This document shows, piece after piece, positions 177 through 26,898 of a stretch of 29,430 nt of DNA. The notes under the pieces were generated by a model. The model had not been told where the DNA came from. It worked only from the letters and a program-made list of their open reading frames with translations, and searched no databases. The stretch's first letter is position 1; the number at the start of each line of letters is the position of its first letter. Made by a program: the position numbers and the translations under genes. Origin of the DNA: a virus; the IMG/VR virus record IMGVR_UViG_3300023712_000215, one strand, 5' to 3'.

Positions 177-1357
177 CTAACTCATTGTATGAGTATAAGT
201 GAATATTTGAATAGTTTTATTTTTTATTGAAAAGTAATATCTGACTGTTGTATTTTTTTTATTTCCTACTTTATATACTGGAATATTGTTATCATTAATT
301 TTTTCTGAAAAAGGAATTCCCTCATGTTTTTTAACAAAATTTTTATAATTTTGTACAAGAGTTTCAATAGATTTATTTTCTGATTCCATATTGAAATATA
401 TGGTGTTATTATCTTTAGTTATTGTGTTCTTGGAATTAATGGTGCATTCTAATGGTAATTCAAATATAAATTCATTAAATTTAAAGTATTTATTTTCATA
501 TTTTTCATTTAATTTTTTATGACCTATCTTATTTAATTTAAAATAATTATTCAATAAATTGAGAGTATAATGTTGAGGTAAGGCTTGATGACCTTTATTT
601 TTTCCATAAATAAAAAGTTTTATATTGTCTAATTCATTAAATGGTAATTTATTTAATGATGTTAAAAAATCTGTAAATTGTGTCTGATAATCTCTATCAT
701 CATTACAATCCATTATTATTAAGGAATTCGGAACATATTCTTCTTTAAGAATGTGTGCTAATATTGAAAGTCTATAATTAAATTTTTTAATTATTTCTTC
801 CTCAGAATAGTTTGAAAAAATTGTATTTTAATTGTATCCCAATACCATCTTTTTAAATTCAATTGAGGAATATCTGCCAGAACATTTGTTTGTTTAATCA
901 TTATTCCTAATTGTAATGATGTGAATCCTCCTGCAGAACTTCCATAAAATATCACGTTTTCATTTTTAAATCCAAATTTTTTAAATAGTTGTACCAGTAT
1001 ATCTTTAATATCTTCTAAAAACCAATCTTCAGGAGTTCCTAAGCCCCATCCTGCATCCATCTTATCATTATATAAATATAAACTAGGATCATTATAATGA
1101 ATTGTAGAAAATTCATCAAAATTCCAACTCCATCGGTTAAACCAAGGTTTAGTTTTATCAATTTTACTTTTATCTAATGGATATGCACCTGATCCTAAAC
1201 ATATTAAATTATCTGTGGATGTTTTTATATTTATCAAAAATTCAAATTTCACATTTTTATATTCGACAATCAAACCTACTTGTTCATTGAGCGGTATTGT
1301 GGAATTAGTTATATTTTCAAAGGAAGTTTTAATTATTGTTTTTACTAGTTTATCCAT
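177..1357 (-). pseudogene. Alpha/beta-hydrolase-fold protein (esterase/acyltransferase-like, about 393 aa if intact), split by a 1-nt frameshift near 812-832
   Basis: ORF 791..1357 carries a nucleophile elbow (IFYGSSAGG). The frame of ORF 177..713 stays open upstream to 827 (NTIFSNYSEEEIIKKFNYRLSILAHILKEEYVPNSLIIMDCNDD), overlapping the end of the first ORF. One extra base in the homopolymer at 826-829 or 815-820 fuses them. Candidate Asp (MDCNDD) and His (KGHQ) lie in the downstream part. Confidence 0.7.
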
Positions 1358-1620
1358 AATGAAAGTATTATATTTTTGTTATTTAAATATTTTGATATTC
1401 ATTAAAAGAGGTTTTTAGAAGATTTAAACATTAAAATTTTTCATTTAAATCATTTATTTAATTATTGATGTTTTTATTTTTGAGTTAGTGAATTTTATTA
1501 GGATTAAGATTAATGTTTTAAATTTACTCCGAGAATTATTAAATTAATTATTTAGTATTATTTAAACAAAAGATAAGTAATAATTATTCAAAAAAAATAT
1601 TATATAATAGATGAAATAAT

Positions 1621-1669
1621 TTTATATATAAATTTCAGAAGTCATATTAAAATGTAATTGATATTACAT
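1621..1669 (+). promoter_or_regulatory. Candidate archaeal TATA box (1621-1630) plus a 7-4-7 palindrome (1652-1669) upstream of the acetyltransferase
   Basis: TTTATATATA about 60 nt upstream of ATG 1692; ATGTAAT-tgat-ATTACAT downstream of it. The AT-rich background limits certainty. Confidence 0.3.
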
Positions 1670-1691
1670 AATCTAAGTGGTTGGTGAAGAA

Positions 1692-2480
1692 ATGAAAATT
1701 GTTAAAGAAGATGAAAATAATAATCAAATTATTGGATATGAACCACAACTGATAAGAAGTACAATAGAATTTAAAGGAAAAAATAATCGTGTGATATGTG
1801 AAAAAAACGTTAGATTAATAAATGCTCGAATAGTATGTTTAGGTAGTAATTCCATAGTCTATTTATCTTCATCACGAAAAAATTATAATATAACTGTTGC
1901 AATATTTAATAATTCTACTTTATTCATAGATGAAAATTGTTCCACTAATGGTAAATTATCTCTAAGTTTATCTGAAGAAAAAAACATATTCATTGGAAAA
2001 GAGTGTTTATTTTCATTTGATATATGGATACGCCTTGCTGATCCACACTTAATTTATGATATTGATACCAAAAAAAGAATAAATTATTCTAAAAGTGTAT
2101 ATTTAGGCGACCATATTTGGGTAGGTCAAGAAGCGTTAATATTGAAAGGAACACAAATAGGCTCTGGAAGTATAATTGGTGCTAAATCAGTAATATCTAA
2201 TAAGATAGTTAATTCAAATACAATTAGTGGTGGAAATCCTATTAAACAAATTAAAGAGGGTATTTTTTGGGATGCTGAATGTGTTCATAGATATACAAAA
2301 AGACAGACAGAAGCATCAATAGATTATGATAGCAATCAATGGATTTATGAAGATGATGGTGAAAAATTAACTTTTGATGAAATTGAAGAGAATTTAAATA
2401 AAACAAACGATTTAGATGAAAAAATTAATTATTTATTAAAAATAAGAAATTTTAAAAGTCATAATAGATTTTACATTTAA
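1692..2480 (+). CDS. Hexapeptide-repeat (left-handed beta-helix) O-acetyltransferase, LacA/WcaF/maltose acetyltransferase-like
   Basis: Motifs CLFSFDIWIRLADPH and VYLGDHIWVGQEALILKGTQIGSGSIIGAKSVI..GGNP. GGTGA RBS at 1683-1687 favours ATG 1692 over the GTG at 1677. Confidence 0.88.
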   Translation: MKIVKEDENNNQIIGYEPQLIRSTIEFKGKNNRVICEKNVRLINARIVCLGSNSIVYLSSSRKNYNITVAIFNNSTLFIDENCSTNGKLSLSLSEEKNIFIGKECLFSFDIWIRLADPHLIYDIDTKKRINYSKSVYLGDHIWVGQEALILKGTQIGSGSIIGAKSVISNKIVNSNTISGGNPIKQIKEGIFWDAECVHRYTKRQTEASIDYDSNQWIYEDDGEKLTFDEIEENLNKTNDLDEKINYLLKIRNFKSHNRFYI

Positions 2481-2515
2481 GTTAATTTATTTAACTTATA
2501 AACTTCAAATATTTT

Positions 2516-4333
2516 TTAATTTACTAATTTTTCAATAAACTCTTTATTTTCTGAATTTAAATGTTTATCTAATTCATATTCTAAATCATATTTACTATTA
2601 TAATCATTAAAGCTATTTTTAAGTATGTTTTTAATCAATTCATTAGTGGTATAACTTTCATAAATATTTTTATATAATTCAACAATATAATTTAAGAAAT
2701 ATTTATCAAATCCTTCATCATATGATCTTTTATAAATTTTAAATAGTATTTCTAAATTAGAAATAGAATTTAACAGATCATGATTTGGATATGTTGTAAT
2801 GTTTTCTAGATATTGATTATTTATTAGGAATGTCTTTGCATTATAAAGTGATAAGAAATTAAATACATTCGGATTATTGAAAATATTATCAGAATAGTTT
2901 TTTAACAATTTATCAAGGAATTGCTTAGAGATAACTAGATTTATATCTTCATTTAAAATATTGAAAAATTCTTTTTCTGTGATATCATTGCTTTTTATTA
3001 CATTATTATCAAATTCATTTAAAATACTTGTATTGTAAGTGATTTTTTCAATATCGTTTACTTTTTTAAAGACCATTAAATCAGCCTGTTTTTCTGAAAT
3101 TTTTAAAAAGTTTTCAATACTATCATAATCAAACCAGCTGTTTGCAGTGACGAAGAGTATGTTTTTTCCCAATGATTCTTGATATCCTTTAATAAATGAT
3201 TTTCTCCGACCTTCATAGTTATTATTAAATATTAATTTAATATCTGATTTTTTATTTTTGTTAATTAACCTGTGAATACTATTTACAAAGTTCTCTTTGG
3301 TGATGTCACTAACACAGATTATTTCAACATCTTCAAAATCCTGGTATAAAAAACTATTTAAACAATTATTTAATTCATTTAGAGTATTGTTTGCATATAT
3401 TATAATACTTAACTTTTTAGAATTATTTATTTTAAATTCTTTATTTACAGAGTCTTTAAATGATTTGATTTCTTCAGAATTCAGTTGTTTATTCGAATTT
3501 AATAGTTTATAGATATTAAACAATATGTTGTCAATATTTTTTAATTGCTTTTTGGAATGTATATCTACTTTAATTTCTTTTAATTCAAGGAATTCTTTTA
3601 AAAATAAATCTAAATAATCTAATTTATTATTTTTTGAATAAAATTCACAAATTTTCTGGTAAGAACAAAGAAGATCCCTGTAGTTTTCAAAAGACATTAC
3701 ATTCGTATAATCAGGTACATTATATGCATAGGATTTAATATTTACATTTACGAATTTCTTTATTTGAAGTAGGACTTGTGCCATGAATAAGTTATCTTCA
3801 CCTTTAGATAAATCTGAAAATTTTAAATTGTTTTCATCAAGAAAATCCTTTTTAAATATATTTTTTTGAATAAAATGAGGTAGTTCATATTTTTTAGAAT
3901 CATATACTTGTGTTTTCATAATATTTTGATAATACTGAGTTTCATTTTTTACCCCATTTATAGTATTAAACTGAATGTTACTAGAAGCTACTGGAACATT
4001 ATGTTTTATTGATTCTTTAATCATAAATTCATAAGAGTGTTTGTTAATAAGATAATCATCAGAATCTACAAATGCTATGAAATAACCAGTTGCTTGTTCA
4101 ATACCTATATTTCTACATTGCCCTGATCCTAATCTTTTTTTATTTCGTATAATTTTAATATTATCATATTTTTGAGCATATTGTTCAATAATAGTTAAAC
4201 TATCATCAATAGAAAAATCATCTATTAAAATAAGTTCAAAGTCTTGTAATGATTGTCTGTAAATTGAATTTAAACATTTTTTTATAGTTTCTTCAGAATT
4301 ATATACAGGTACTACTATCGATAATAATTTCAT
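2516..4333 (-). CDS. Two-domain GT2 glycosyltransferase (intact N-terminal GT2, degenerate C-terminal GT2)
   Basis: N-terminal LSIVVPVYN..IDDFS..RNIG..AFVDSDD. Second domain KLSIIIYANN..QDFEDVEIICVSD..ILFVTANS lacks the DxD. AGGTG RBS upstream on the minus strand. Confidence 0.9.
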   Translation of the reverse strand: MKLLSIVVPVYNSEETIKKCLNSIYRQSLQDFELILIDDFSIDDSLTIIEQYAQKYDNIKIIRNKKRLGSGQCRNIGIEQATGYFIAFVDSDDYLINKHSYEFMIKESIKHNVPVASSNIQFNTINGVKNETQYYQNIMKTQVYDSKKYELPHFIQKNIFKKDFLDENNLKFSDLSKGEDNLFMAQVLLQIKKFVNVNIKSYAYNVPDYTNVMSFENYRDLLCSYQKICEFYSKNNKLDYLDLFLKEFLELKEIKVDIHSKKQLKNIDNILFNIYKLLNSNKQLNSEEIKSFKDSVNKEFKINNSKKLSIIIYANNTLNELNNCLNSFLYQDFEDVEIICVSDITKENFVNSIHRLINKNKKSDIKLIFNNNYEGRRKSFIKGYQESLGKNILFVTANSWFDYDSIENFLKISEKQADLMVFKKVNDIEKITYNTSILNEFDNNVIKSNDITEKEFFNILNEDINLVISKQFLDKLLKNYSDNIFNNPNVFNFLSLYNAKTFLINNQYLENITTYPNHDLLNSISNLEILFKIYKRSYDEGFDKYFLNYIVELYKNIYESYTTNELIKNILKNSFNDYNSKYDLEYELDKHLNSENKEFIEKLVN

Positions 4334-4363
4334 AAGAAAAACACCTATATCATTTATTTTTTT

Positions 4364-5137
4364 TTAAGAATCTTCTAATACTTTTTTAATATATGATTTT
4401 AAGTCATGATTTTCATAAATAATATTATTCATAAGATTTATTGATTTTTCTAATTCATCAAAGGAATTCTTTAATTCCATAAAATCAGATTCTTTAATAT
4501 CATTATTTTTCATATATTCTAATTGAAATAATTCTGTTTGTCTTTTCAATTTATTAAGTTCAAGATAGATATTATTAATATTATTTATATCATTAACAGT
4601 ATCATTTTGTTTATTAATTAAATCAACAATCTCTTTTGTTTGATTTTCAAATTTATCATTGATTGTGTGTTTTAATGTATTGTTAAAACTATCATGTAAT
4701 GTTACATCAAGATTTTCAATTTTTTTATTTTCTTCTTTAGTAAGATTACATAAATTTTCCATAGTTCTATTACTATCATCAGTAATATTGGATAACTTAT
4801 CTATCCTTTTAGAACTTTCATCTGTAATATCCGATAACTGCTCTACCTTTTTATTACTGTCTAGAGTAATTTCAGATAACTGCTCTATATTTTCATTACA
4901 TTCAGAGAAAATGTCCAACAAATGCTCTATATTTTTATTTTCTTTATCAGCAATTCCACATAGCTTTTCAATTTTTGTATTAAAAGTATTTTGATTATCT
5001 AAAATTTCTTCGTATTTTTCTAGAGACTCTTTAATCTGAGTATTTTCGATTAATAATTTTTCATAATTAGTTTTATAAAAATTATATTGGTTACTTGAAC
5101 GAAGTATACGATTTTTTATTTTATTTAAAACTTTCAA
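4364..5137 (-). CDS. Predicted coiled-coil protein with internal 14-aa repeats; probably co-transcribed with the downstream GT2 gene
   Basis: Heptad-rich E/K/N/L sequence throughout. A GGTG RBS-like sequence precedes TTG 5137 (the ORF track start at 5149 overlaps it). The gap to the next gene is 30 nt. Confidence 0.75.
   Translation of the reverse strand: MKVLNKIKNRILRSSNQYNFYKTNYEKLLIENTQIKESLEKYEEILDNQNTFNTKIEKLCGIADKENKNIEHLLDIFSECNENIEQLSEITLDSNKKVEQLSDITDESSKRIDKLSNITDDSNRTMENLCNLTKEENKKIENLDVTLHDSFNNTLKHTINDKFENQTKEIVDLINKQNDTVNDINNINNIYLELNKLKRQTELFQLEYMKNNDIKESDFMELKNSFDELEKSINLMNNIIYENHDLKSYIKKVLEDS
4707..4958 (-). repeat. About six imperfect 42-bp (14-aa) tandem repeats inside the coiled-coil gene
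   Basis: GATAAC anchors at 4791, 4833 and 4875 (42-nt spacing). Protein units: NKNIEHLLDIFSEC / NENIEQLSEITLDS / NKKVEQLSDITDES / SKRIDKLSNITDDS / NRTMENLCNLTKEE / NKKIENLDVTLHDS. Confidence 0.8.
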
Positions 5138-5234
5138 ATTATCCACCAATTTGATTAATAAGTAAATGTTTATATATTATTTAATATAAATTTTTTATAT
5201 ACATTATTTTTAGTTCTTAAAAAGTTGTGATTAA

Positions 5235-7211
5235 ATGAACAAGATTAAAATATCACTAATAGTAAATATTACTACTAAAAAATATTTAGAAGAGTTTTTA
5301 GATAATATTTTTTCTCAAAATTTTAGAGATTTTGAGATTATTCTTGTTAATTCACAAAAAAACAATTTAGATAACTTAGTTAAAGATTATGAAAAAATCA
5401 AAATAGTAAATTCAAATAATGAAAATATAAACATATCCTGGAATAGCGGATTAAAACTTGCTGAAGGACGATATGTTTTATTTATGAACTCATATGATTT
5501 TTTACAGGAAAATAGTCTCGAACTTTTATATGAAAAAGCAGAACTTAAACAAACAGACGTGCTAATGTTTAAGTCTATTGATTTCTTCGATTCTTATAAT
5601 ACTTATCAAACAAAGGATTATTTTCCTTCTTTAAATGAATTAACCAATAAAATATTTCTAGCGGAAAATATGGATAATGACTTGTTATTCGAAATAAATA
5701 CTAATATTAAACATTTATATTTAAATTCATTTTTAAAAGAAAACAACATATGTTTTTCAGAAGATTTACTACAAGAAGACTTATTATTCAAATTTAAGAC
5801 ATTATTTTGTGCAGATAAAATTTCTTTTGCAGATTATCCGTTTTATTGTTCTAGAATATTTGAAAATGATGCAAATAGTTTAAATTTATGTTTTAATGAT
5901 TTTTCTTCGTTTTTATCTAAATATATTTCTTTTTTCATAATATTTAAAAAATATTTATCCTATAAAAAGAATATACTTGATCAATATGTTACATTTATAA
6001 AAAATTATTTTTATTCTTTATCTGATTTTGATAAAAACAAGTATTTTAACTTCATCAAACAGGAACTGACCAAATATGACTTTATTGAATATGATGATTA
6101 TTATGAGAATCTTAGCTATGAAAATATACTTTTTATTAATTTAATTCAAAAGTCTATTAGTTATACAGATTATTTGGTTAATATTGATCTTCGGAAAAAT
6201 AAAAATCATCAATTGATTTCTGTTATTATGCCAGTATATAATGGTAAAGTGGAAGATATAAAAAATGCATTTAAATCAGTATTTAATCAATCTTTTGGAT
6301 TTGAAAATATTGAATTAATAATCATTGATGATTGTTCTACAGAAAAAGAGGGTAAAAATTATATTAAGTTATTAACTGATCTATATCCTAATGTTAAATC
6401 TATTTTTTTAGATGAAAATAAGGGTTCTGGTCATGCACGAAATCAAGGTATTAAATTAGCATCAACACATTATATCATGTTTTTAGATCATGATGACACT
6501 TATACTCCAGATGCGTGTAAAGTTTTATTTGATAATATTTTTAATAAAGATGTTGATGTGGTTAGTGGAAATTATATCAATACAACACCAGGTGCTCATA
6601 AAATTATACATTGGGATAAAAGGAATATTCCTCATTTATATGAAAAGACACATAATTTACATGATAATCCTAGTTTACTTAAGATATACCCGTCAATATG
6701 GACTAAAATATTTAAAAAATCTTTTTTACTGGATAATAAACTTTTTTTTAAAAACTTCAAAGCAGGTCAAGACCTCATTTTCTATCAAGAAGTTTTATGT
6801 AAAGTAAACTCTATAAAGTTTATAAAGGATTTGATTGTTAATTATTCATTTAGAAAAGGTAATTCAATTAATAAAGGTTCAATTTCATTAAATCGTTCTA
6901 AAGAAATATTAAAGACATATATTAATGTTTATTACACATCATATAATCTTATAAATAATGAATTACCAGAATATTCGTATTTAGCCTTGAATAATTTGAA
7001 TAGTTGGTTAAATAATAAATTTTTTGATACGAATTTTGATTATGATAATTTTAAAGAAATTTGTGATTTTTCACAAGAATTATTTGAATTATTTAATAAT
7101 AACGATAAAACCAAACCTATTAAACAATATGAACAAATATATGAGGATATTGCAAATAATAACATTCCAGAAGCATACATATTTTATAAAAAGAACAATA
7201 ATGTTTTATGA
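5235..7211 (+). CDS. Two-domain GT2 glycosyltransferase (degenerate N-terminal GT2, intact C-terminal GT2)
   Basis: N-domain ISLIV..SQNFRDFEIILVNS..WNSGLKLAEGRYVLFMNSYD (DxD lost). C-domain ISVIMPVYN..IIDDCST..ARNQG..IMFLDHDD..SIWTKIFKK. Confidence 0.9.
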   Translation: MNKIKISLIVNITTKKYLEEFLDNIFSQNFRDFEIILVNSQKNNLDNLVKDYEKIKIVNSNNENINISWNSGLKLAEGRYVLFMNSYDFLQENSLELLYEKAELKQTDVLMFKSIDFFDSYNTYQTKDYFPSLNELTNKIFLAENMDNDLLFEINTNIKHLYLNSFLKENNICFSEDLLQEDLLFKFKTLFCADKISFADYPFYCSRIFENDANSLNLCFNDFSSFLSKYISFFIIFKKYLSYKKNILDQYVTFIKNYFYSLSDFDKNKYFNFIKQELTKYDFIEYDDYYENLSYENILFINLIQKSISYTDYLVNIDLRKNKNHQLISVIMPVYNGKVEDIKNAFKSVFNQSFGFENIELIIIDDCSTEKEGKNYIKLLTDLYPNVKSIFLDENKGSGHARNQGIKLASTHYIMFLDHDDTYTPDACKVLFDNIFNKDVDVVSGNYINTTPGAHKIIHWDKRNIPHLYEKTHNLHDNPSLLKIYPSIWTKIFKKSFLLDNKLFFKNFKAGQDLIFYQEVLCKVNSIKFIKDLIVNYSFRKGNSINKGSISLNRSKEILKTYINVYYTSYNLINNELPEYSYLALNNLNSWLNNKFFDTNFDYDNFKEICDFSQELFELFNNNDKTKPIKQYEQIYEDIANNNIPEAYIFYKKNNNVL

Positions 7212-7384
7212 AATATCTTTATGTAATAATTTTTATACTGCAATATACTAAAAGATTATATATAAGAATTTAATAAATTCAAAATTAGGAGATTTTCTTA
7301 TAAAAAATATCCTGAAATGGTTAAATTTAAATTAAAAGAAAATTAACTCATAAAAAATTAAATCTGTATGAATAGGTGTAAAAA

Positions 7385-10300
7385 TTGTATAAAATTTCTA
7401 TTGTAATATTAATTGATTCATTTAATAATGTTGAAAACATCATAGAAATCTTAAAAAAACAAAATTTAGGATTTGAAAATATTGAATTAATATTCATAGA
7501 CAATTATTCTGATGACGATACACAGAATTATTTATCTAAATTATCAATGGAATATCCGAATATTATTAAATATCGTACAAGACAAAAATTAGCAAAAAAT
7601 AATTTATATAATATTGGTATAAAATTAGCCAATGCAAAATACGTTATGTTTGCAAATAATAATTTTTCATATTTAAATTATTCCTTTGAAACATTATATA
7701 ATGTTATTTCTAATGAAGATGTTAATATTGTATGGGGAAATTATATTCTAAATTATGAAAATAAATTTATACAGAATAATGTCAATATACCATTTAAAAA
7801 TGGATTATTAATTGTTAGAGATATAAATAAAGAACCAGATTTATTAAAAAACAGTTTTCTTTTAGAAACATTCATTTTTAATAGAAATTTTTTAATGAAA
7901 AAATTGATTGAATTTGATGAAAATATTTCTGATAATACTATTTTTATCCAAAAATCATTACTAAATTCTGAAAAAACAATTTTTATAAATAAACCTATAT
8001 TAAAAATAAAGGAGAACATAATTAACGAAAAAATTAATAATTCAACATATATCCAATATATAAACTCATATTTAAAATTTATTGATTATTTAAACGAGAA
8101 ATTTCCCCAGTTTATATGGTTATCTTCCAAAATTGTTAAAGATATGATAGATTTATTATTAACTTACAAATTTAATGATGTGGAACTCTATTATATTCTT
8201 GAACAAACACATAAATTATTTATTCAAATTGATACTTCAGCAGAACATATGAACTTAACCTTTAAAGAAAATACCTTGTTTAATTTAATTGTTGAAAGAA
8301 AATATGATAAACTGGTAAAAATTCTTAATCTTGTTCATATGGATTCCAGGATATTAGATGAGAAGATAAAATCAAAGGATATTCTCATTCTATTTTATGG
8401 ATTTGACTATGAAATTGGAGGTTTAGCTAAAGCAGTATTTAATAGAGCTAATATGTTAACTGAATATGGATATTCCATAAAATTAATCAATATTGATCCA
8501 TATAGTCCTAATTTTATGAGAAATCAAATAAAAAATATTAAATTAATTGAAAATAATTTTAGAAAACTAAATTATATACATTCAGAAGTTGAGTTTTTAA
8601 ATGTTTTTGAATATTACCGTGACAAAAATACCTTATCAAACATTACTTTTAAGGATATTGATTTTTCTTCTGACTTAATGTTGACTAATGAATATGTTAT
8701 TAAAAAAATTAGTCAAGAAAAAGGTGTTATTAATTATAATTATTATCGTAAGGAAGTATTTACTGATAAAGAATTAAAAAGAATATATTTTGAATCCAAA
8801 AAAGAATATTCTAATGATATAAAAAGTATAGTACTAGAAAAAATATTTGATAAAAACATATATAAAACAGAATATTATATTAATAAAGAATTATATTTAA
8901 TTTCATATTATAATAACTTAAATAAAATCATAAAAGAAGAATTTTATACAAATGATGGCTTTATATATTTTGAAATAATAAAATATGGAAATAAAAATAA
9001 ATACGAATACATTTTACATAATATTGAAACAAAATCACAAATAATATTTAATAATTTAAAAAGATTCTGGGATTATTTTATCGAAGAAATATGTATGGAA
9101 TGTAATGAAAAACCATTTTTAATTAATGATTGTTCAGGACCTATTCCATCAATAAATAACGTATCAGCAGATTTAGCATATAAAATAGGAAATATCCATT
9201 CAAATCCGTATTTAAAACCCACATATTGTTATGGTAGTCCCTTAAGAAATATTGCAGCATTGAAAGATATTGAAAATATGGATACTATAATAACATTGAC
9301 AAACTCTGAAAAAAATGATTTTATTAAGGAATTTAAATCAGATAAATTTTATACTATTCCTAACTTAATAAATCTTGATGAAATATTTCAATTAGATAAG
9401 ATTAACTTCAAAATTAACAAGAAAAAAATATCAATATTTTCAAGAATTTCCAAGGAAAAAAATTTAGAAGATGCTATTAAAGCATTCAATATAGTAGTTA
9501 AAAAACATCCTGATGCAATCTTAAATATTTATGGCAGATATCTTAAAGTAAATGAACAGAAAGAATATAAAAAACTTCAGGCTCTTGTTAATAAGTTAGG
9601 TTTAGAACAAAATGTTTTTTTCAAGGGACATATAACAAACAGTTATGAAGAAATGCGCACTTCATTATTTACATTACTTGTTTCCCATATTGAAGGTTTA
9701 CCTATGGTTTTAATAGAATCAATGGCAAATAAAACACCTATGATTACCTATGATATTAATTATGGTCCAAATGATGTCATTTCCAATAATATTGATGGTA
9801 TTATTGTTGAAAAATATAATGTAGATGAATTAGCAGATAAAATGATTTATTTATTAGACAATCCTAATAAAGCTATGGAAATGGGAATTTTAGCCCAACA
9901 AAAAATTATTAAAGAATTTAGTTCAGAAAAAATTTGTAAAAAATGGACACATGCTTTTAGAAACACATATTTAATGGCAAAAACTAAGCTAATTGAACAA
10001 AAATTAACTATTGATATGTATGAATCAAATATCAAAAAATTAAGCAATATTAATAGTTCTCAATACCATAGGATAAATGATATGGATGAAATAATAGATG
10101 TTAATAGAAATAAAATTAATCAAATTCAAGTGGATTTAATAGAAAAAAAGAATTATACAATAAAACAAAAAAAATTAATTTATAATAATGAGAAAAAAAT
10201 TGAAGAAGATACTGTTAACCTTGAAAAATTAAAAAAGGAATTGAAAAAATTAGAAGTTAAACATGATAATTTAAATGATACTATTTATAATAATCAAAAT

Positions 10301-10429: not shown

Positions 10430-10468
10430 TTTGAAAAAAAAGAATACAGTAGAAATGAAAGTGATAAT

Positions 10469-17931: not shown

Positions 17932-17940
17932 ATGACAAAA

Positions 17941-18557: not shown

Positions 18558-21221
18558 ATGAAAATTAATAAGTTATTATTATTTTTTACGCTTCTAATAT
18601 TTCTAATTGGAATAGGATATGCTTCTGAAACATCGGATAACATAACTGATGTATCTGAAAAGATATCACAAAACATCCAAACAAAAGAAGTTACTAGTAG
18701 CATAGTAAATGAAACTAATAATAAAAATAATAAAATATACAATGAAAACACTAAAAATAAAAATCTCAAGACAACTACTAATTCCTATGATGTAAAAACA
18801 TATGAAGAATTTAATACAGCATTAACAAAAAATAGTAACAACAACATAACAATTAATATAAAATCAAACATCCTATTAAAAAACAATACACTAATCAATA
18901 AAGCAATCAAAAACGTTACTATTAATGGAAACTCAAAAATAATTGATGGAAAGAACACATATCAATTTTTAAAATTCAATAATGGAATTAATGTAAATAT
19001 CAACAATCTCATAATAAAAAATTGTATAAATAGTTCCATAGAAAATAGAGGTACATTAACTATAAGCAATTCCACATTCACACTAAATTCTGCAAATTAT
19101 GGTGGAGCTATATACTCATCACGTGCAAATCTAACAGTAACTCAATGTAATTTCAATAATAATACTGGAAATATTTATGGTGGAGTAATTGACAGTTATT
19201 TATGTAATTCAACAGTTACATATTCCAATTTTAGTAACAATATTGCTAAAAAATATGGTGGAGCAATTTATATTTATGGTGGAACTTTAAAAGTAACAAA
19301 TTCCGTGTTTACTAGCAATAATGCAGAATTTAGTGGAGCAATCCATAACAGTAATGGAAAAATCTCTATTTCATATTCTAAATTTAATAAAAATACAGCT
19401 CAATATAATGCAAAATCAAATCATGATGGAGGAGCAGTTTATACATATAAAGGTGTTTTAAACATTGCCAAATCTTCATTTACTAGTAACAGTGCAGATT
19501 ATGGAGGAGCAGTTTATATCCTTAATGGAACATCAACAATATCCTCTTCAAATTTCACAGGAAATATAGTAAATCATGATGGAGCAGCAGTTGAAAGCTA
19601 TCAAGCATCAACAAGAGTTATAAATTCAATCTTTACAAACAATCTTGCTAAAGTTTATGGTGGAGGAATATATAATTTTAATGGTACAGTAAATATAACT
19701 ACTTCAACTTTCAATAAAAACAATGCAAATAATGATTCAGGTGCAGTAGAAAATTATCAGGGAATATTAACAATTAGCAAATCCACATTCACAAATAATA
19801 ATGCAAAAATGTTTGGTGGAGCTGTTAGAAACTATGATGCTAAAACAACTATCCAAACATCAACATTTACAAATAACACTTCAAATAATGGAGGAGCAAT
19901 ATATTCATCGTTAGGACGCTTTGAATTATACACATCAAAACTTGAAAGAAATACTGCTAATTATGGTGGAGCAATATTCACTCATAAAGGATATTTTAAA
20001 GTTAGTACATGTAACATCAGCAATAACAATGCCAATTTTACTGGAGCAATAAGAAGTACTGATTCAAATACGACAATCTTAAAATCTAACTTCAATAAAA
20101 ACACTGCAAAACAACAAAGTGGAGCAATATATACTTATAATAGTAATGTAACAATTACAACTTCCAATTTTACATTGAATAGTGTTAATGATTATGGCGG
20201 CTCAATTTATACTTCATTAGGTAAAGTCACCATTTCTTCATCTAAAATAATTAATTCAAAAGCAGGAAAAAATGGAGGAGCAATTTACAACACCAAGACA
20301 ATATTAACCATTACCAATTCAACATTAAATTCTAACAATGCAACATCTTATGGCGGAGCAATCTATACTACCCAAGGTACATTAAAAATTTCCAATTCTA
20401 ATTTAACAAATAATTCTGCAGGAAATTATGGTGGAGCTATAGAAAACTATGATGGTAAATTAAATGTAATAAAATCAAAATTCTTAAATAATAAGGCAAC
20501 ATCCCATGGTGGAGCAATATTCAACAAAGGAAACAATACCGTTATTGAAAATAACATCTTCAAAAACAATACAGCCAAGGTAAATGGAACAATACATCAA
20601 GTTGCTGGTGGAAAAAATAATTCAATCAGAAACAACACAATTGACGATACAAAAATTGCTACTAAACTTACTTTAAATGTACCCACAATAAAAGTAATTC
20701 AGAACAATTATGTTACAATAACCGGTAAATTTACAACAAATAGCAATGTAAATCTACCCAATACAACACTTAAAATAAATCTAAATAATAATATAATTTC
20801 AGTTAAAACAAATGCCACTGGAGCATATTCATACAAGTTTAAAGCAAGTAAATTTGGAATCAATACTGTAAATATCACATATCCTGGAAATACCAAGTAT
20901 GACTCAACAACTTTAACTAAAACATTCAATGTAATTTATGGAACTGTTTTAACAATAAATACTATTCCTAATACTAAAGTTAACAAAAATGTTACCATTA
21001 CTGGTAAATTTAGCAATAAAAATGGAAATATTTTAAAAAATAGTAATGTGAAACTCACCATTAATTCAAAATCATATATAGCTAAAACAGATGCTAATGG
21101 AATATATAAATTCACAATTAAAGCAGATACCATAGGAACGAATACTGTAACAGTATCTTTTGCAGGTAATACTAACTATAATGCAACTAGTATAAAAACA
21201 AGCTTTAATGTTACAAAATAA
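18558..21221 (+). CDS. Adhesin-like (Asn/Thr-rich) surface protein: signal peptide, right-handed beta-helix repeats, two C-terminal Ig-like domains
   Basis: Signal peptide MKINKLLLFFTLLIFLIGIGYA-S. 19 GGAI-type repeats of about 26 aa. Two terminal domains of the type T.LT..VTITGK..KT.A.G.Y..G.NTV...Y.GN..Y. AGGAG RBS. Confidence 0.9.
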   Translation: MKINKLLLFFTLLIFLIGIGYASETSDNITDVSEKISQNIQTKEVTSSIVNETNNKNNKIYNENTKNKNLKTTTNSYDVKTYEEFNTALTKNSNNNITINIKSNILLKNNTLINKAIKNVTINGNSKIIDGKNTYQFLKFNNGINVNINNLIIKNCINSSIENRGTLTISNSTFTLNSANYGGAIYSSRANLTVTQCNFNNNTGNIYGGVIDSYLCNSTVTYSNFSNNIAKKYGGAIYIYGGTLKVTNSVFTSNNAEFSGAIHNSNGKISISYSKFNKNTAQYNAKSNHDGGAVYTYKGVLNIAKSSFTSNSADYGGAVYILNGTSTISSSNFTGNIVNHDGAAVESYQASTRVINSIFTNNLAKVYGGGIYNFNGTVNITTSTFNKNNANNDSGAVENYQGILTISKSTFTNNNAKMFGGAVRNYDAKTTIQTSTFTNNTSNNGGAIYSSLGRFELYTSKLERNTANYGGAIFTHKGYFKVSTCNISNNNANFTGAIRSTDSNTTILKSNFNKNTAKQQSGAIYTYNSNVTITTSNFTLNSVNDYGGSIYTSLGKVTISSSKIINSKAGKNGGAIYNTKTILTITNSTLNSNNATSYGGAIYTTQGTLKISNSNLTNNSAGNYGGAIENYDGKLNVIKSKFLNNKATSHGGAIFNKGNNTVIENNIFKNNTAKVNGTIHQVAGGKNNSIRNNTIDDTKIATKLTLNVPTIKVIQNNYVTITGKFTTNSNVNLPNTTLKINLNNNIISVKTNATGAYSYKFKASKFGINTVNITYPGNTKYDSTTLTKTFNVIYGTVLTINTIPNTKVNKNVTITGKFSNKNGNILKNSNVKLTINSKSYIAKTDANGIYKFTIKADTIGTNTVTVSFAGNTNYNATSIKTSFNVTK
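19101..20520 (+). repeat. 19 degenerate GGAI..T.S.F..N.A beta-helix repeats (about 78 nt period) within the adhesin
   Basis: Counted from YGGAIYSS (19101) to HGGAIFNK (20508): 18 intervals over 1407 nt. Confidence 0.8.
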
Positions 21222-21290
21222 TTCATTAAAATGAAATGATTAATTAGATTCAAGAGAAATATTCTAAAACTTTTTACTAAAAAACTGGTA

Positions 21291-21322
21291 ATTACTTATG
21301 AATAATTTAATTCATAAGTAAT
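21291..21322. terminator. Perfect 13-bp hairpin between convergent genes; candidate bidirectional terminator
   Basis: ATTACTTATGAAT (21291-21303), 6-nt loop, ATTCATAAGTAAT (21310-21322). Confidence 0.6.
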
Positions 21323-21370
21323 ATTATTTTTATTTCTTACATTAAACCATATTAAGAATCAAAATTTATT

Positions 21371-24007
21371 TTAATGATCAAGTATCCATCCATATACTCT
21401 TTTACAATTATTTTTATCATTGTATTTAAAGAATTTTTTCATATTCTGATTATATCCCTCTTTCATTTGACATTCATTTTTGATATAATTATTAATTAAT
21501 TCTATTAACTCTTCTTCTTCTTTTATTACTTCTCCAAATCCATCGGTTTCATAGTCAAAGTATCCGTTTTCATAGTGATAGTCATCATCTGCTTGGTAGT
21601 ATATTACTGGCTTTTCCAGGTATGCAAAGTCAAAGAATACTGAGGAGTAATCTGTTATTAACAGTGATGAGTCAGCAAATAGTTTTTGGTATGACTCATC
21701 TTCGGATATTTGCACATATTCAGGTATTTCTATGATATCCATGAATTCCTTTAGTTCTGGATGTGGCTTAAATACTAATGTATATCCAGAATTTTCAAGA
21801 ATTTCTTTTAGTTTTTGATTGTTTAGAAATCCCACGAGTGTTTTATAGTAATCTGATTCCAATAGTCTTTTTGGATAATTTAGGCCTATTCTCCATGTTG
21901 GCATGTACAGTATTTGTTTTTTTGTATCATTACTTGTTAAGTTATCATATCTTGGAAATCCCAATGTTTGTATTATATCTTCATCAAAGTTGTATCCTTC
22001 CTGTAGGAAAGATTGTCTTTCACGTTCTGATACTGTAACTATCAATGAGAGATTTTTATCATATTTTTTGATAAATTCTGATACGTCATCCTTTGTCACT
22101 CCATGCTGCAGGAAGTATCTGTTTGATGTTATCATTCCACTGTATAGTTCAGGTGTTTTATAATGGAATGGATTGATGAAATTTTCATTTACATATGATG
22201 AGATTACTTTTTGAGCAAATAGATAAAGTAGTTTATGTTTTAGGCCTCCAAATGATACTATGTTTCCACCAGTTTTCTTCATATTATTATAATCTTTTGA
22301 ATCCTTATTTATTATGAAGTATTTTCTGATTTCATCTTCTTGTTGAATGGAATATTTATAGAGATGTTTTGCATTGTCATCTGCAAAGTCTGGACGATCT
22401 GAGTATAACCATATTTTCCTGTTTCTATAAAAGGGATACAACAGAAGATATAATGTCTTGTATAGTATTGCATTTAGATAGAATTCCTGTTTGTCATATA
22501 GGATTCTTTTGATGTTGCTGATATCATAGCGTATCATTGATGTGTATTTTTCTGGTTGTATGTGGAATGAATTATTTTTAAACAGCAAAAGTTTAGAATC
22601 TTTTGTAAAGTATGCACTTGATGTAGATAATCCACAGTTATTTCTAAAACTTATATGTGGATTAAATGAATATTGATTTTGTCCATCATCATATACTATT
22701 TCAAAGTATAATCTTGTATTATATGACGGACATTTTATTGATACATCAAAGTTGTATGAGTACTTCCAATCGTATGTTATGTATTTGAGTGTCATCCTCT
22801 TGGGATTATTGTATTTTACATACCTTGCAGGAATGATATTTTTTTCACCTTCACAATCGGCTATCAGATTGACATGCATATACTTATTTTCAAACAATGA
22901 CTCAAAGTTTCCTGAAAAATTAATGATGTCCTCGTTTAATTCTATTATGTCAAACCATAATGGATGAATTGATAATTTATCTAATATATAATCATTTGAA
23001 CAGATACAAACATCATCAGAGCATACTTCAATCTTTTTATTCTTATCATGTTTTAGATATATGAAAAATGGCAATACATGCTCATCAATGTATTCATTAT
23101 CCATTATTACATCTTCATCAATGTATGATAAGATATAGTATATTTTTTCCCAGAAATCATCAATTTCTTCTTGTGTTTCCAGAATTTCCAAATCTTCTAC
23201 CTTAAATACCCATTGCAAGTCATATGCCATTAGTGCTTGTATAAATTTAGGGACTTTTCCTTCCTTTTCTAAGGAATAATTTATTATTTCATAATAGAAG
23301 CGTTCCAGTCGGGATGTGTAGTATTCTTTCTTTTTTGTCATTGTGTCAACAGTACTTGTTGCATCCATCCTTTGTCTATAATAATAGTATACATTACTGA
23401 TTAAGCCATATTTTTTCTTCTCTAGAAATATTTTATTAATTATCAACGCATCTTCAAGGTTAACTAGCTTTGTATCAAATTCATAGTCTTTTATTGCATC
23501 ATATTTAATAAATGCTGATGATGAGGACAACTGTGGATTATTTGGTTCATCTATTAGATTGACTACTCTTGTTTGTTGAAATTTATTGTTTAATCTATGT
23601 GGTGCTTCAACTCGTTCAAATAACAGCATAGGTATTGCAACTACATCCACTTCCTGTTGATGTTTTTCAAAAAAGTCATATACTACTTTAAGTGTATCCT
23701 GTGAGATATAGTCATCACTATCAAGGAAGTTAACATATTTTCCCTTAGCATATTTTAGTCCATTATTTCTTGCTGTTGATTGTCCCTGATTTTCCTGTCT
23801 GATTACAATAATATTTTCAGGATATTTCTCTTTATATTCAGTTGCAATTTTGTTTGAATTATCCGTACTTCCATCATCAACCAATATCAATTGAATATTT
23901 TCTTTAAAGTTTAGTGTTTGGTTTAAAATGGAGTTTATAGTCTCTTCCAGGTATTCTTCCACATTATACACGGCTATTATTATTGAAAACTTGTACTGAT
24001 AATTCAT
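21371..24007 (-). CDS. GT2-TagF fusion (glycosyltransferase / CDP-glycerol glycerophosphotransferase-like); paralog of 13777..17931
   Basis: FSIIIAVYN..VDDGSTD..ARNNG..VNFLDSDD. TagF motifs FLQHG, GFPRYD, ILYMPTWR, FKPHP, LITDYSSVFFDF. The C-terminus NNCKRVY.WI is shared with the paralog. Confidence 0.92.
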   Translation of the reverse strand: MNYQYKFSIIIAVYNVEEYLEETINSILNQTLNFKENIQLILVDDGSTDNSNKIATEYKEKYPENIIVIRQENQGQSTARNNGLKYAKGKYVNFLDSDDYISQDTLKVVYDFFEKHQQEVDVVAIPMLLFERVEAPHRLNNKFQQTRVVNLIDEPNNPQLSSSSAFIKYDAIKDYEFDTKLVNLEDALIINKIFLEKKKYGLISNVYYYYRQRMDATSTVDTMTKKKEYYTSRLERFYYEIINYSLEKEGKVPKFIQALMAYDLQWVFKVEDLEILETQEEIDDFWEKIYYILSYIDEDVIMDNEYIDEHVLPFFIYLKHDKNKKIEVCSDDVCICSNDYILDKLSIHPLWFDIIELNEDIINFSGNFESLFENKYMHVNLIADCEGEKNIIPARYVKYNNPKRMTLKYITYDWKYSYNFDVSIKCPSYNTRLYFEIVYDDGQNQYSFNPHISFRNNCGLSTSSAYFTKDSKLLLFKNNSFHIQPEKYTSMIRYDISNIKRILYDKQEFYLNAILYKTLYLLLYPFYRNRKIWLYSDRPDFADDNAKHLYKYSIQQEDEIRKYFIINKDSKDYNNMKKTGGNIVSFGGLKHKLLYLFAQKVISSYVNENFINPFHYKTPELYSGMITSNRYFLQHGVTKDDVSEFIKKYDKNLSLIVTVSERERQSFLQEGYNFDEDIIQTLGFPRYDNLTSNDTKKQILYMPTWRIGLNYPKRLLESDYYKTLVGFLNNQKLKEILENSGYTLVFKPHPELKEFMDIIEIPEYVQISEDESYQKLFADSSLLITDYSSVFFDFAYLEKPVIYYQADDDYHYENGYFDYETDGFGEVIKEEEELIELINNYIKNECQMKEGYNQNMKKFFKYNDKNNCKRVYGWILDH

Positions 24008-24122
24008 ATTTAATCAACTAAATTTTTTATTGAAGATTCTGTATATAATTATTCTATCATACGAAATTAATAAATTTTAATTAGAACAAAGATATACTTT
24101 AAGAAAAAAAATAGAATGTTGT

Positions 24123-25181
24123 ATGTTTATGTCCGATTGCAAGATTAGTGTAATTATTCCAGTATATAATAGTGCTGATTATCTATGTGAATGTTTAGAT
24201 AGTTTAATTAGTCAAACATTCAATGATTTTGAAGTAATATGCATAGATGATGGTTCAACAGATAAATCAAAAGAAATTCTTGAAGAATATTCAAACAAAG
24301 ATATTCGTTTTAATGTATTCAGTCAAGAAAATTCTGGTCCTGCAGTTGCACGAAATAATGCAATTGATAAAGCAATCGGTGAATATATCCTATTTTTAGA
24401 TAGTGATGATTGGCTAAAATCAGATACTTTGGAAAAACTTTACAGTACAGCTTGTTCCAATAGTTCAGAACTAGTACTTTTTAATGCAATAGAACATTAT
24501 AAAGATAATATTACAAGAGAACGTATTTATCATATACATGCCGATGAGACTACTGATTTTGATGAGTTTAGTTTTGATTATAATAATAACATTAATCTTG
24601 TAATGAACGGCTACCATATTGTATGTACTAAACTGCATAAAAGAAGTTTTATAAATGAGAACAATATAAGATTTAAGAGATATGGACAATTTGAAGACAT
24701 ATACTTTCATATAAAAAGTATGATCTGTGCAAAGAGAATTTCATATAATCCAGAAATATTTTATCATTACAGACGTACACAGGAAGATTCTAGGCAAAAT
24801 ACTACAATATCCACAGATAAAAGCTTTGTTCTGTTTAGTATATTTGATGAAGTGGAAGAATTACTTGAAGAATATGAATTATCACAAAAGCTACATATAA
24901 ACTTTATACGCTTTAAGGTAAATGAAACATACAACATATTCAATAATATAAAAAAGGAATATACTGATGAATTATATAAAATTACATATGATGAATTTAA
25001 TAAGATGAACTTGAACAATAAAGATATTCTAAGACTTCCATTAAATCATCAAATCTTTTATAAAAGTATAATTCAATCATCAGATTATTTACAATATGAA
25101 AAACTATTGAAGAAAAACAAAATTCTTACCGAATTTAAAGGATATGCACGTAAACTTAAAAATAAAATTATGCAACAATAA
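24123..25181 (+). CDS. Single-domain GT2 glycosyltransferase
   Basis: ISVIIPVYN..CIDDGSTD..GPAVARN..ILFLDSDD..FEDIYF. The start could be ATG 24123 or 24129. Confidence 0.92.
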   Translation: MFMSDCKISVIIPVYNSADYLCECLDSLISQTFNDFEVICIDDGSTDKSKEILEEYSNKDIRFNVFSQENSGPAVARNNAIDKAIGEYILFLDSDDWLKSDTLEKLYSTACSNSSELVLFNAIEHYKDNITRERIYHIHADETTDFDEFSFDYNNNINLVMNGYHIVCTKLHKRSFINENNIRFKRYGQFEDIYFHIKSMICAKRISYNPEIFYHYRRTQEDSRQNTTISTDKSFVLFSIFDEVEELLEEYELSQKLHINFIRFKVNETYNIFNNIKKEYTDELYKITYDEFNKMNLNNKDILRLPLNHQIFYKSIIQSSDYLQYEKLLKKNKILTEFKGYARKLKNKIMQQ

Positions 25182-25407
25182 CATTAAGTAAATAAGGTAT
25201 ATTATATATTATATTATGTTAGTCACCAAAAAATGAAATAAAAAAATGCATTAAATCCAATAGGAATTCTCCTTATTCCAACATTAATGAAATCATATGT
25301 TAAAATATATGTAATATGTTGAACAAATATAGAATAAATAATTTAAAAAATAATTAAGATAAATTAAAACAATTAAAATAATCATTTTTCAATAATTAAA
25401 GTCAAAG

Positions 25408-26898
25408 ATGAGATATGGTATTATGTCTTCAAGTAATGAGAAAAAATCTTTTTTTAGAAATATAATAAGTAAAATTTCTAAAATGAGAAATTTACGTTAT
25501 GCTAATAAGCAATTTAAACACATGCTTGAAGAAATTATTGATAAAAATTTACAACAGGAATATTTTAAAACTAATGCCATAACGGTTATTGAAGATGATC
25601 CAAAATTAGATTTGGAACTTGATGAAGAATACATCAACAATACATTATTATCCAAGTATTACGAGTATAATACAACTCGCCTACCATGGGGTATGAATAA
25701 ACTTATTTTTGAAAATAATCTATACAAAGAGATTATACGTGATTTATTTACAAATACAGAAGTATTTGAAGCATATAAAAGAATTATTGATATGAATCTT
25801 GTAGATAATGAATATTATAATGAAAAATATGATTATTCCCTTTCTGTTCCACCAATACTACATTTTTTATATAGAGGATATAATGAAGGAAAGAATCCAA
25901 GTTCATACTTTGACTGTGATTTTTACCAGGAATATAATGAAAATGCGGGAAATTCTGAATTAAATCCAATAGTATACTTTGTATTAACGGGAGTGGATGA
26001 GGGACTAGTTAAAATTAATCGAGACTTTTATGCACCTCGTGCAATAAATAAACTAGAACTTAAGGATAAAATTGAAAATTACAAGGAATATGGATTAACA
26101 ATAGATAAACGCAAAAAACAGTTAATTGTATCATTCACTTCATATCCTTTACGTATGAATGAATTGCATTATACTATTTATTCACTTGTTAATCAGGAAT
26201 TAAAGCCCGATAAACTATTATTATGGTTATCATATGAAGAGTTTCCTAACTTGGAGGATGACATTCCCGAAAGTGTTTTGAGATTTAAAGATCATGGCCT
26301 TGAAATAAGATGGTGTAACAATATTTACTCATATAAAAAACTTATTCCAACTCTTTCGGAATATCCTAATGATATTATTGTAACTGTTGATGATGATGTA
26401 TTTTATCCACGAAATTGGCTTAAAAAACTTTTTGAGACACATACAAAGAATCCAAAAGAAATAATAGTCCATCGTGCAAGAAATATGAAATTAATTGATA
26501 ATTATATGTTTAAGGAATATACCAGTTGGGATCTTATTAAAGAAGAGTCAGAACATTCTTATTTAACATTTATGACTGGTGCGGGTGGAATACTTTATCC
26601 ACCAGAATCATTACATGAATATGTATTTAATCAAGAGCAATTTTTAGATTTGTGTCGTTATGGTGATGATATATGGTTCTGGGCAATGGCAATACTTAAC
26701 AGGACAAAATTTAAAGTAGTTGATGATCCATTCTATGATTTAATATACATCAATCCTGCACGTGAAGTTCATCTTATAAAAGAAGAAACATTATGGTCAA
26801 ATAATAGACAAGGAAGTAATGACAGACAATTAAAAGCAGTAATAAAACATTTTCCTGAGATTATGAAAATAATACAAGAAAATGATGAAAATTCCTGA
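25408..26898 (+). CDS. Putative GT-A-fold glycosyltransferase with an N-terminal duplicated H[FY]xxxGxxEG module
   Basis: C-domain LIVSFTSYPLR, YKKLIP, VTVDDDVFYP, TGAGGILYPP, DDIWFWAM. N-module LHFLYRGYNEGKNPS..FDCDFY..PIVYFVLTGVDEG. The start could be ATG 25423. Confidence 0.75.
   Translation: MRYGIMSSSNEKKSFFRNIISKISKMRNLRYANKQFKHMLEEIIDKNLQQEYFKTNAITVIEDDPKLDLELDEEYINNTLLSKYYEYNTTRLPWGMNKLIFENNLYKEIIRDLFTNTEVFEAYKRIIDMNLVDNEYYNEKYDYSLSVPPILHFLYRGYNEGKNPSSYFDCDFYQEYNENAGNSELNPIVYFVLTGVDEGLVKINRDFYAPRAINKLELKDKIENYKEYGLTIDKRKKQLIVSFTSYPLRMNELHYTIYSLVNQELKPDKLLLWLSYEEFPNLEDDIPESVLRFKDHGLEIRWCNNIYSYKKLIPTLSEYPNDIIVTVDDDVFYPRNWLKKLFETHTKNPKEIIVHRARNMKLIDNYMFKEYTSWDLIKEESEHSYLTFMTGAGGILYPPESLHEYVFNQEQFLDLCRYGDDIWFWAMAILNRTKFKVVDDPFYDLIYINPAREVHLIKEETLWSNNRQGSNDRQLKAVIKHFPEIMKIIQENDENS

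Follow-up and report, generated by a model that had tools for sequence, protein, structure and literature searches.

The 29,430-nucleotide stretch of DNA analysed here, held in IMG/VR as virus record IMGVR_UViG_3300023712_000215 and called the window below, is the entire contig C9 (29.4 kb) of the genome of a gut methanogen, a Methanosphaera (2.61 Mb, 132 contigs, 99.9% complete), and covers the greater part of a surface-glycan island that varies between strains of this Methanosphaera species. Two of its genes encode fusions of family 2 glycosyltransferase (GT2) domains with TagF-like (Glyphos_transf) domains, and we propose that these GT-A/TagF-like fusions build a phosphodiester surface glycopolymer together with the tailoring enzymes encoded around them. 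We give this model as a whole a probability of about 0.55; it builds on observed domains, motifs, fold and gene content and predicts from them a chemistry, a donor, a route of export and a mode of anchoring. The assignment to Methanosphaera is based on the nearest loci, which belong to Methanosphaera genome bins, and on named homologues from Methanosphaera and Methanobrevibacter, in agreement with the methanogen host that an earlier sequence-only reading of the window had assumed.

That reading had also claimed two GT2-TagF fusions with full sets of TagF motifs, and both are confirmed. Pfam recognises GT2 and Glyphos_transf (PF04464) domains in a 1384-aa and an 878-aa protein, whose PF04464 scores are 116.9 and 172.7 bits against a curated cut-off of 22.1 bits. 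The genome holds four TagF-like open reading frames (ORFs), the two in the window and two paralogs on contig C55, and common to all four are the motifs DR..ADDN, F[LI]QHG, LGxPRYD, PTWR, FKPHP and [TS]D[YF]SSV..DFAYL.KP. The key residues of the 878-aa protein are a DxD at D96-D99, H635 in QHG and H749 in KPHP. Its C-lobe finds TarL (8VA1, 1.4e-8) and TagF (3L7I, 2.5e-5) among PDB sequences, the second catalytic histidine included, and H749 (FKPHP) aligns directly with the RMHY segment of TagF and the KMHP segment of TarL. H635 (QHG) is invariant in 35 homologues and was equated with the N-lobe catalytic histidine by motif order and fold, the reference pairs being H444/H584 in TagF and H300/H433 in TarL. 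When the 1384-aa protein is compared with its 878-aa paralog, both of its GT2 units and its TagF domain align (44% and 36% identity), the GT-A unit having been duplicated; FLDSDD is kept in both GT2 units of the longer protein, and every GT2 unit in either fusion has a DxD. As far as the sequence tells, these TagF-like domains are genuine and look active, with their catalytic motifs intact.

The predicted structure points the same way. An AlphaFold (AF2) model of the 878-aa protein, made with 35 homologues, reached a mean predicted local distance difference test (pLDDT) score of 90.3. Residues 488-878 of the model matched TagF of Staphylococcus epidermidis (3L7J) with Z 28.2 and a root-mean-square deviation of 3.8 Å over 354 aligned residues; other matches of this part were the capsule polymerases Cps3D (Z 26.9) and Bcs3 (Z 25.6), and TarL (Z 23.3). 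Residues 2-424 matched TarS (Z 27.6) and TarP (Z 27.1), and residues 5-501 aligned with full-length TarS, its beta-sandwich part included (428 residues, Z 26.1). Foldseek agrees with these fold matches. Fold was also considered as a means of telling TagF-like domains that transfer hexose phosphate from those that transfer polyol phosphate and was set aside, as TagF, Cps3D, Bcs3 and TarL all lie at Z 23-28 and are not discriminated.

In the proposed mechanism the two fusions would most likely be bifunctional or trifunctional polymerases, in which the TarS-like GT-A domain or domains would add sugars from nucleotide sugars and the GT-B domain resembling TagF would form the phosphodiester link, so that the product would be a poly(glycosyl-X-phosphate), teichoic-acid-like or capsule-like. 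The donor for the phosphodiester would be a uridine diphosphate (UDP) sugar, as in the capsule polymerases CslB and Cps1B, or an unrecognised source of a cytidine diphosphate (CDP) polyol. A TarM-like family 4 glycosyltransferase (GT4), the other GT2s and an acetyltransferase of the island may decorate or extend the polymer. The chain would be assembled on a lipid carrier at the inner membrane face, primed by a WbaP-type phosphoglycosyl transferase on contig C29 or by a PF00953 enzyme, and exported by a Wzm/Wzt-type ABC-2 (ATP-binding cassette, ABC) transporter on C29; that it is then attached to the pseudomurein wall we suppose purely by inference.

The sequence-only reading had taken the locus to build a polyol- or sugar-phosphate wall polymer. 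What holds of this is the presence of a teichoic-acid and capsule toolkit with the architecture of CslB and Cps1B (PMC5974469), and the resemblance to the teichoic acid pathway is strong at the level of the polymerase. Beyond that level the parts are missing: the genome gave no match to PF03808 (TagA, the WecG-family N-acetylmannosamine transferase) or to PF03816 (the LytR-CpsA-Psr, or LCP, ligase), no CDP-polyol synthase was found, and the window contains no primer, flippase or exporter. With no TagD, TarI, TagA or LCP ligase this is not a canonical teichoic acid pathway, and the island does not belong to the wall teichoic acid systems of Gram-positive bacteria in the strict sense. Genes that may fill some of these roles lie on other contigs. 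A cluster at C29:1-11000 encodes an ABC-2 permease, an ABC ATPase, two GT2s, the WbaP-type (Bac_transf) phosphoglycosyl transferase, a UDP-glucose dehydrogenase and a DUF1616 protein, and is a candidate primer and exporter module for glycans made in the cytoplasm; its ABC-2 permease is a core gene of the genus (68-74% identity). Two PF00953 genes are also present (C11, C96), at least one of which we presume to serve pseudomurein or N-glycan synthesis; with the Bac_transf enzyme they are the candidates for a TagO/WecA-type initiating transferase, as the ABC-2 pair is for a TagGH-type exporter.

The donor was approached by a search for donor enzymes in all six frames of the entire genome. The sequence-only reading had stated that it would fall if the genome had neither a CDP-polyol nor a sugar-1-phosphate donor pathway; a CDP-glycerol or CDP-ribitol synthase was not found and UDP-sugar routes are present, which counts in part against that reading. 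The best match to the TagD model in the genome (99.9% complete, 132 contigs) reached 51 bits against a cut-off of 165 bits. No match to this model was taken to mark a route to CDP-glycerol: the best pair proved to be cytidylyltransferase–phosphoenolpyruvate (PEP) mutase fusions of 432 and 444 aa (PEP mutase equivalog, 427 bits), and the remaining pair is PPAT and a RibL-like protein whose gene adjoins hisA. The sole IspD-family match in the genome is CobY and was rejected as TarI. A third housekeeping-type CTP_transf_like gene of ~180 aa, found on C118 by the Pfam scan, presumably encodes NMN adenylyltransferase. Other nucleotidyltransferases comprise PmurB, CofC, GalU, two RmlA, a ManC-like enzyme and a 241-aa LicC-type enzyme, and a 436-aa ORF on C120 is a probable GlmU-type enzyme by its Pfam match alone. 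The LicC-type enzyme (C96) was considered as the missing donor enzyme and dismissed, as it tracks PEP mutase and not TagF: its gene adjoins the cytidylyltransferase–PEP mutase gene in 7/7 genus genomes that carry it and is absent from the TagF-positive genomes G033, G038 and G108. TagD and TarI were also not found in the related genomes G029 (1 contig, 4 TagF genes) and G038 (2 contigs, 3 TagF genes), which carry only three housekeeping CTP_transf_like genes, also present in TagF-less relatives, and this shared absence is thus more than an assembly gap. The nucleotide-sugar routes remaining in the genome lead to UDP-, dTDP- and GDP-sugars only, and UDP-sugar supply is represented by GalU, UDP-glucose dehydrogenase and Glf.

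A UDP-hexose is preferred as the phosphodiester donor because the GT-A/TagF architecture has been shown to transfer hexose-1-phosphate in CslB, Cps12B, Cps1B and Ccs2 (PMC5974469), because several genomes with fusions have no CDP-polyol synthase, and because the genome has a supply of UDP-sugars. In GT-A/TagF polymerases the TagF-like domains take hexose phosphate from UDP-sugars (PMC5974469; PMC10901376). The specific proposal that the divergent QHG TagF-like domain uses a non-canonical donor in those Methanosphaera genomes that have TagF-like fusions but no CDP-polyol synthase, with cytidine monophosphate (CMP)-2-hydroxyethylphosphonate from neighbouring Fom1-like clusters as the most interesting option and a UDP-hexose as the more conservative one, is in our view highly unlikely. 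Were it true, the former donor would imply a pseudomurein wall that bears a phosphonate analogue of teichoic acid, and the latter the first archaeal hexose-phosphate polymer.

Several observations weigh against the proposed model, and many of them favour a rival that retains the classical chemistry, in which the TagF-like domains would take CDP-ribitol or CDP-glycerol and produce a poly(glycosyl-polyol phosphate), the donor being supplied by a gene missing from the assembly or by a cytidylyltransferase that is unrecognised or moonlights, such as the RibL-like protein on C41. The nearest bacterial homologue, from Roseburia sp. CAG:309, has the QHG motif as well and is 33% identical along the whole length; it clusters with two YfhO genes, TarI, TarJ and a canonical TagF, and a TarI-like gene lies inside the TagF island of the Methanosphaera genome G108, so the subfamily may ancestrally use CDP-ribitol; bacterial genomes with close homologues also have TagD. 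The GT-A unit resembles TarS, TarP and RmlT, which are glycosylators of ribitol phosphate, and the GT4 of the island is TarM-like. S. epidermidis TagF itself has a GT2-like N-terminus, and architecture therefore does not discriminate between donors. Moreover, a protein of the RibL (FAD-synthetase) family can act as a glycerol-phosphate cytidylyltransferase (Rodrigues 2017, as cited in PMC8262930), a precedent by which the housekeeping RibL-like gene on C41 could supply CDP-glycerol. The assembly breaks exactly in glycan islands (132 contigs), and TagD-like fusion genes of Methanobrevibacter occur near that genus's own TagF genes. It is the TarI associations, together with a RibL-family enzyme able to make CDP-glycerol, that make this rival a serious one; we still judge it unlikely, as TagD and TarI are missing from a genome that is 99.9% complete and from the closed G029 and the two-contig G038 alike, and as the CTP_transf_like genes of these two relatives are only the housekeeping ones. 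Two further points against the model concern the enzyme and the exporter. Glutamine occupies the site of the tryptophan (W443 in TagF, W299 in TarL) that stacks on the catalytic histidine in those enzymes (PMC10901376), and does so in all four own paralogs and all 35 aligned homologues, the closest bacterial one included. In closed relatives a distance of ~0.5 Mb separates the ABC exporter from the TagF island, and a link between the two by position was accordingly given up. To our knowledge, moreover, biochemical data exist for no archaeal TagF-like protein.

Two other explanations carry less weight. According to one, the TagF-like domains use CMP-2-hydroxyethylphosphonate, the predicted product of Fom1/Fom2/FomC-like clusters on C92 and C96, so that hydroxyethylphosphonate replaces glycerol phosphate. 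This compound is the sole predicted CMP-activated small alcohol in the genome, arising from two clusters with a cytidylyltransferase–PEP mutase fusion, a phosphonopyruvate decarboxylase and an Fe-alcohol dehydrogenase; the cluster lies ~13-40 kb from the GT2-TagF island in the closed relative G029, and PepM-positive genomes have TagF genes in 4/4 cases (genus members sampled at order level). Yet the LicD phosphotransferase inside both phosphonate clusters is the obvious transferase, the TagF-positive genomes G033, G038, G108, G115 and G181 are without PepM, the LicC-type nucleotidyltransferase follows PepM rather than TagF, and no TagF-like enzyme is known with a phosphonate donor. Because each cluster has its own LicD transferase and many TagF-positive genomes are without PEP mutase, a phosphonate donor is very improbable, and we give it the least weight. 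According to the other, the island modifies adhesin-like surface proteins and makes no free wall polymer, by analogy with the GT4s SdgA, SdgB and GtfA and the Asp2 acetyltransferase that act on serine-rich adhesins of Gram-positive bacteria. The GT4 of the island matches SdgB and SdgA nearly end to end, a hydrolase gene is Asp2-like, and an adhesin-like gene stands mid-island, all as such a role might predict; but serine-rich and SD repeats are missing from the adhesin, a frameshift interrupts the Asp2-like gene, the match to TarM is as good as that to SdgB, and no part in protein glycosylation is known for TagF-like polymerases, which leaves this analogy improbable. The phosphodiester glycopolymer, with a UDP-hexose as the favoured donor, remains the reading we prefer.

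TagD-like domains (110-121 bits, below the equivalog cut-off) were seen in other members of the order, inside ORFs of 440-460 aa that are often within ~10 kb of TagF genes. Such fusion ORFs occur in 36/201 Methanobacteriales genomes and in three genera only, Methanobrevibacter included (e.g. G091:C19:20425-20793 and G186:C93:28204-28572). The phosphonate clusters are likewise an observation in their own right. They lie at C96:~44400-49000 and C92:~23600-29200, and each consists of a Fom1-like fusion, a phosphonopyruvate decarboxylase, an Fe-alcohol dehydrogenase and LicD, to which the C96 cluster adds the LicC-type nucleotidyltransferase, two Wzx-type flippases and Glf. The clusters predict decoration of a glycan with 2-hydroxyethylphosphonate. 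PEP mutase was found in 20/201 Methanobacteriales genomes, which belong to only two host-associated genera, and its presence in one Methanobrevibacter had already been noted in a 2016 genome paper (PMC4987999).

The two fusions included, the window holds ~10 adjoining glycan genes (Table 1), called from the ORF listing and from Pfam and NCBIfam scans. Ten transferase genes within 27 kb, and a GC content of 22-23% in the island against 29.3% in the genome, show that this arrangement is not due to chance. Every transferase of the window is without a predicted transmembrane (TM) segment, and the only hydrophobic, TM-like segment within the island is that of the adhesin-like protein. An IS630 element stands at the island border, between the island and a tRNA-guanine transglycosylase (TGT) gene, in a stretch that measures ~1.9 kb here and ~0.5 kb at the syntenic site of G029. 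The gene order in the syntenic island of G029 is unlike that of the window, and nucleotide identity is 65-70% there against 82% in the flanking TGT gene, which indicates that the island evolves fast and rearranges. The G029 island (G029:C1:~1124788) also has a 2557-aa open frame with a TagF domain.

Table 1. Genes and other features of the window, with the matches on which each call is based
Position	Strand	Feature	Basis
177..1357	-	Alpha/beta serine hydrolase, Asp2 / XcbB-CpsF-like (esterase or O-acetyltransferase), frameshifted	N-part 791-1357 with GSSAGG nucleophile elbow; C-part open frame 180-827
1677..2480	+	Hexapeptide (left-handed beta-helix) O-acetyltransferase, WbbJ/WcaF/Vat-like	Pfam Hexapep; NCBIfam WbbJ 1.3e-16; all below equivalog cut-offs
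2516..4333	-	605-aa protein, two GT2 (GT-A) stretches, no TM segment	Glycos_transf_2 1.1e-41
4364..5149	-	261-aa coiled-coil protein, ~14-residue repeats	Sequence
5235..7211	+	658-aa GT2 protein, two GT2 stretches, best at residues 329-460	Glycos_transf_2 2.1e-43
7385..10429	+	1014-aa fusion: N-terminal GT2, TarM/SdgB-type GT4, C-terminal coiled coil	Pfam; SdgB 7.7e-31; TarM 1.4e-30
10469..13057	+	862-aa paralog of 7385-10429: GT2 with intact DxD, N-half of TarM-like part, long coiled coil	Pfam GT2 only
13777..17931	+	1384-aa GT2 + GT2 + Glyphos_transf fusion; predicted three-site polymerase, (GT2 + helical/beta-sandwich unit) x2 + TagF-like GT-B	Pfam Glyphos_transf E 1.3e-33
18558..21221	+	887-aa secreted adhesin-like protein: signal/TM segment, PMP-type beta-helix repeats, immunoglobulin (Ig)-like domains	Pfam Chlam_PMP, Beta_helix, Big
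21371..24007	-	878-aa GT2 + Glyphos_transf fusion: TarS/TarP-like GT-A (residues 1-~485) + TagF-like GT-B phosphotransferase domain (~488-878)	Pfam E 1.4e-50
24123..25181	+	352-aa stand-alone GT2	Glycos_transf_2 1.5e-39
25408..26898	+	496-aa protein, probable GT-A domain in C-half (VTVDDD)	Weak GT2 3.1e-4; KfiA 0.023
27141..28528	+	IS630-family insertion sequence; helix-turn-helix (HTH) ORF 27198-27692, DDE_3 ORF 27860-28501	Pfam; 41-nt terminal inverted repeats
28850..29430	+	TGT gene start; conserved flank, continues on contig C72	Pfam TGT 2.2e-43; synteny with G029

The sequence-only reading had listed a TarM/TagE-like GT4, an O-acetyltransferase, a serine hydrolase and several further glycosyltransferases, and of these only the hydrolase needs qualification. 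The GT4 part of the 1014-aa protein matches TarM by phmmer over residues 3-492 of 493, the inserted N-lobe beta-domain included; it also matches SdgA and SdgB, covering positions 11-494 of 496 in the SdgB profile. As the TarM and SdgB matches are below the NCBIfam exception-level cut-offs, this GT4 is not an orthologue of either. The GT2 at the N-terminus of the same protein has NNN in place of its DxD, 'FANNNF' aligning with 'FLDPDD' of the paralog, and on this substitution it is probably inactive. The 862-aa protein is a tandem, diverged paralog (26% identity over ~600 aa) in which Pfam finds no Glycos_transf_1 lobe, and both proteins end in long coiled coils. The 496-aa protein has an N-terminal module rich in tyrosine and asparagine that weakly resembles the C-end of the 862-aa protein (BLASTP 0.002), and the 261-aa coiled-coil protein gave no family match in the Pfam and NCBIfam scans. 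The O-acetyltransferase is a hexapeptide enzyme as claimed, and GT2 domains were found in four further proteins, with a weak GT-A in a fifth. The serine hydrolase is present with its GSSAGG elbow, but its gene is frameshifted near 794-827 and the C-part lies in another reading frame than the N-part. This call is based on a weak XcbB/CpsF match, on Atlas matches to Asp2-like alpha/beta hydrolases and on full-length archaeal relatives of 431 aa; an intact paralog at C92:11089-11847 has both halves contiguous in one frame. The adhesin-like protein carries 37 N-X-S/T sequons and is embedded mid-island, and is possibly a glycan carrier or a simple neighbour. In Methanosphaera sp. rholeuAM130 (L012:4662-6790) the GT2-TagF homologue is followed immediately downstream by two genes for esterases or acyltransferases of the SGNH/GDSL type (GxDLY + Lipase_GDSL_3), and O-acyl tailoring thus seems to recur in these islands.

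According to a 1978 report, the walls of Methanobacteriales contain neutral sugars and phosphate at teichoic-acid levels. We know of no Methanobacteriales wall polymer that has been identified behind this phosphate, and the islands are the obvious candidate genes for it. TagF domains were found in 139/201 sampled Methanobacteriales genomes, in 23/28 genera and in 9/14 other sampled genomes of the own genus, and homologues are annotated publicly as bifunctional glycosyltransferase/CDP-glycerol glycerophosphotransferases. The sequence-only reading saw its novelty in the function of the system as a whole, and this does not stand, as such a system had already been proposed for Methanobrevibacter ruminantium: Leahy 2010 listed GT2/TagF fusions of that species under 'teichoic acid biosynthesis', inferred unidentified wall glycopolymers and an acquisition from Firmicutes, and tied the fusions to the teichoic-acid-level wall phosphate of M. 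ruminantium measured by Kandler and König (PMC2812497). A full-text literature search found no paper that mentions Methanosphaera and glycerophosphotransferase together. The idea at the level of the system is thus not new; what the window adds is an instance from Methanosphaera in which the polymerases are intact and a polyol donor is not recognisable. With intact TagF-like polymerases present and the usual CDP-polyol supply absent, donor specificity becomes a concrete and testable question for the soluble 878-aa enzyme. Since the islands vary between strains of host-associated methanogens, we infer that they probably influence how hosts, viruses and antibodies, such as those raised by anti-methanogen vaccines, recognise these cells.

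Comparison with known systems places the fusions between several of them. M. ruminantium M1 has GT2/TagF fusions in a pseudomurein methanogen as well (mru1078/1079, mru2181/2182/2191; PMC2812497); it is annotated with an IspD/alcohol dehydrogenase (TarI/TarJ-like) pair and a cytidylyltransferase, whereas TarI and TagD were not found in the Methanosphaera genome, and the TagF domains described here are further from the Pfam model (E ~1e-50) than those of other genera (1e-124). With TagF of S. epidermidis and Bacillus subtilis and TarL/TarK of Staphylococcus aureus they share the GT-B fold, PTWR, K/R-x-H, TDYSS and a catalytic-type His-Gly in the N-lobe, at ~19% identity; they differ in the donor-polyol loop (HGVTKDD here, HGTPLK there), in the Gln for Trp before the catalytic His and in having no TagB-type primase context. 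An analogy with GgaB of B. subtilis (minor teichoic acid) was considered and dropped, as the papers found contain no domain data on it. The group 2 capsule polymerases CslB (Neisseria meningitidis L), Cps12B and Cps1B (Actinobacillus pleuropneumoniae) and Ccs2 (Haemophilus influenzae c) draw both hexose and hexose-1-phosphate from UDP-sugars and need no CDP-polyol (Litschko 2018, PMC5974469). The likeness to these GT-A/TagF-like enzymes is one of architecture, a single chain in which a GT-A (DxD) domain at the N-terminus is joined to a TagF-like GT-B domain with two histidines at the C-terminus, but the host here is an archaeon and one paralog has its GT-A unit duplicated. Where most of these GT-A/TagF-like polymerases have a tetratricopeptide repeat (TPR) domain, the model of the 878-aa protein has instead a helical linker and a beta-sandwich like the C-terminal part of TarS. 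Unlike TarS and TarP of S. aureus and RmlT of Listeria, the TarS-like unit here forms one covalent chain with the phosphotransferase, and unlike TarM, the TarM-like unit of the island is fused to a degenerate GT2.

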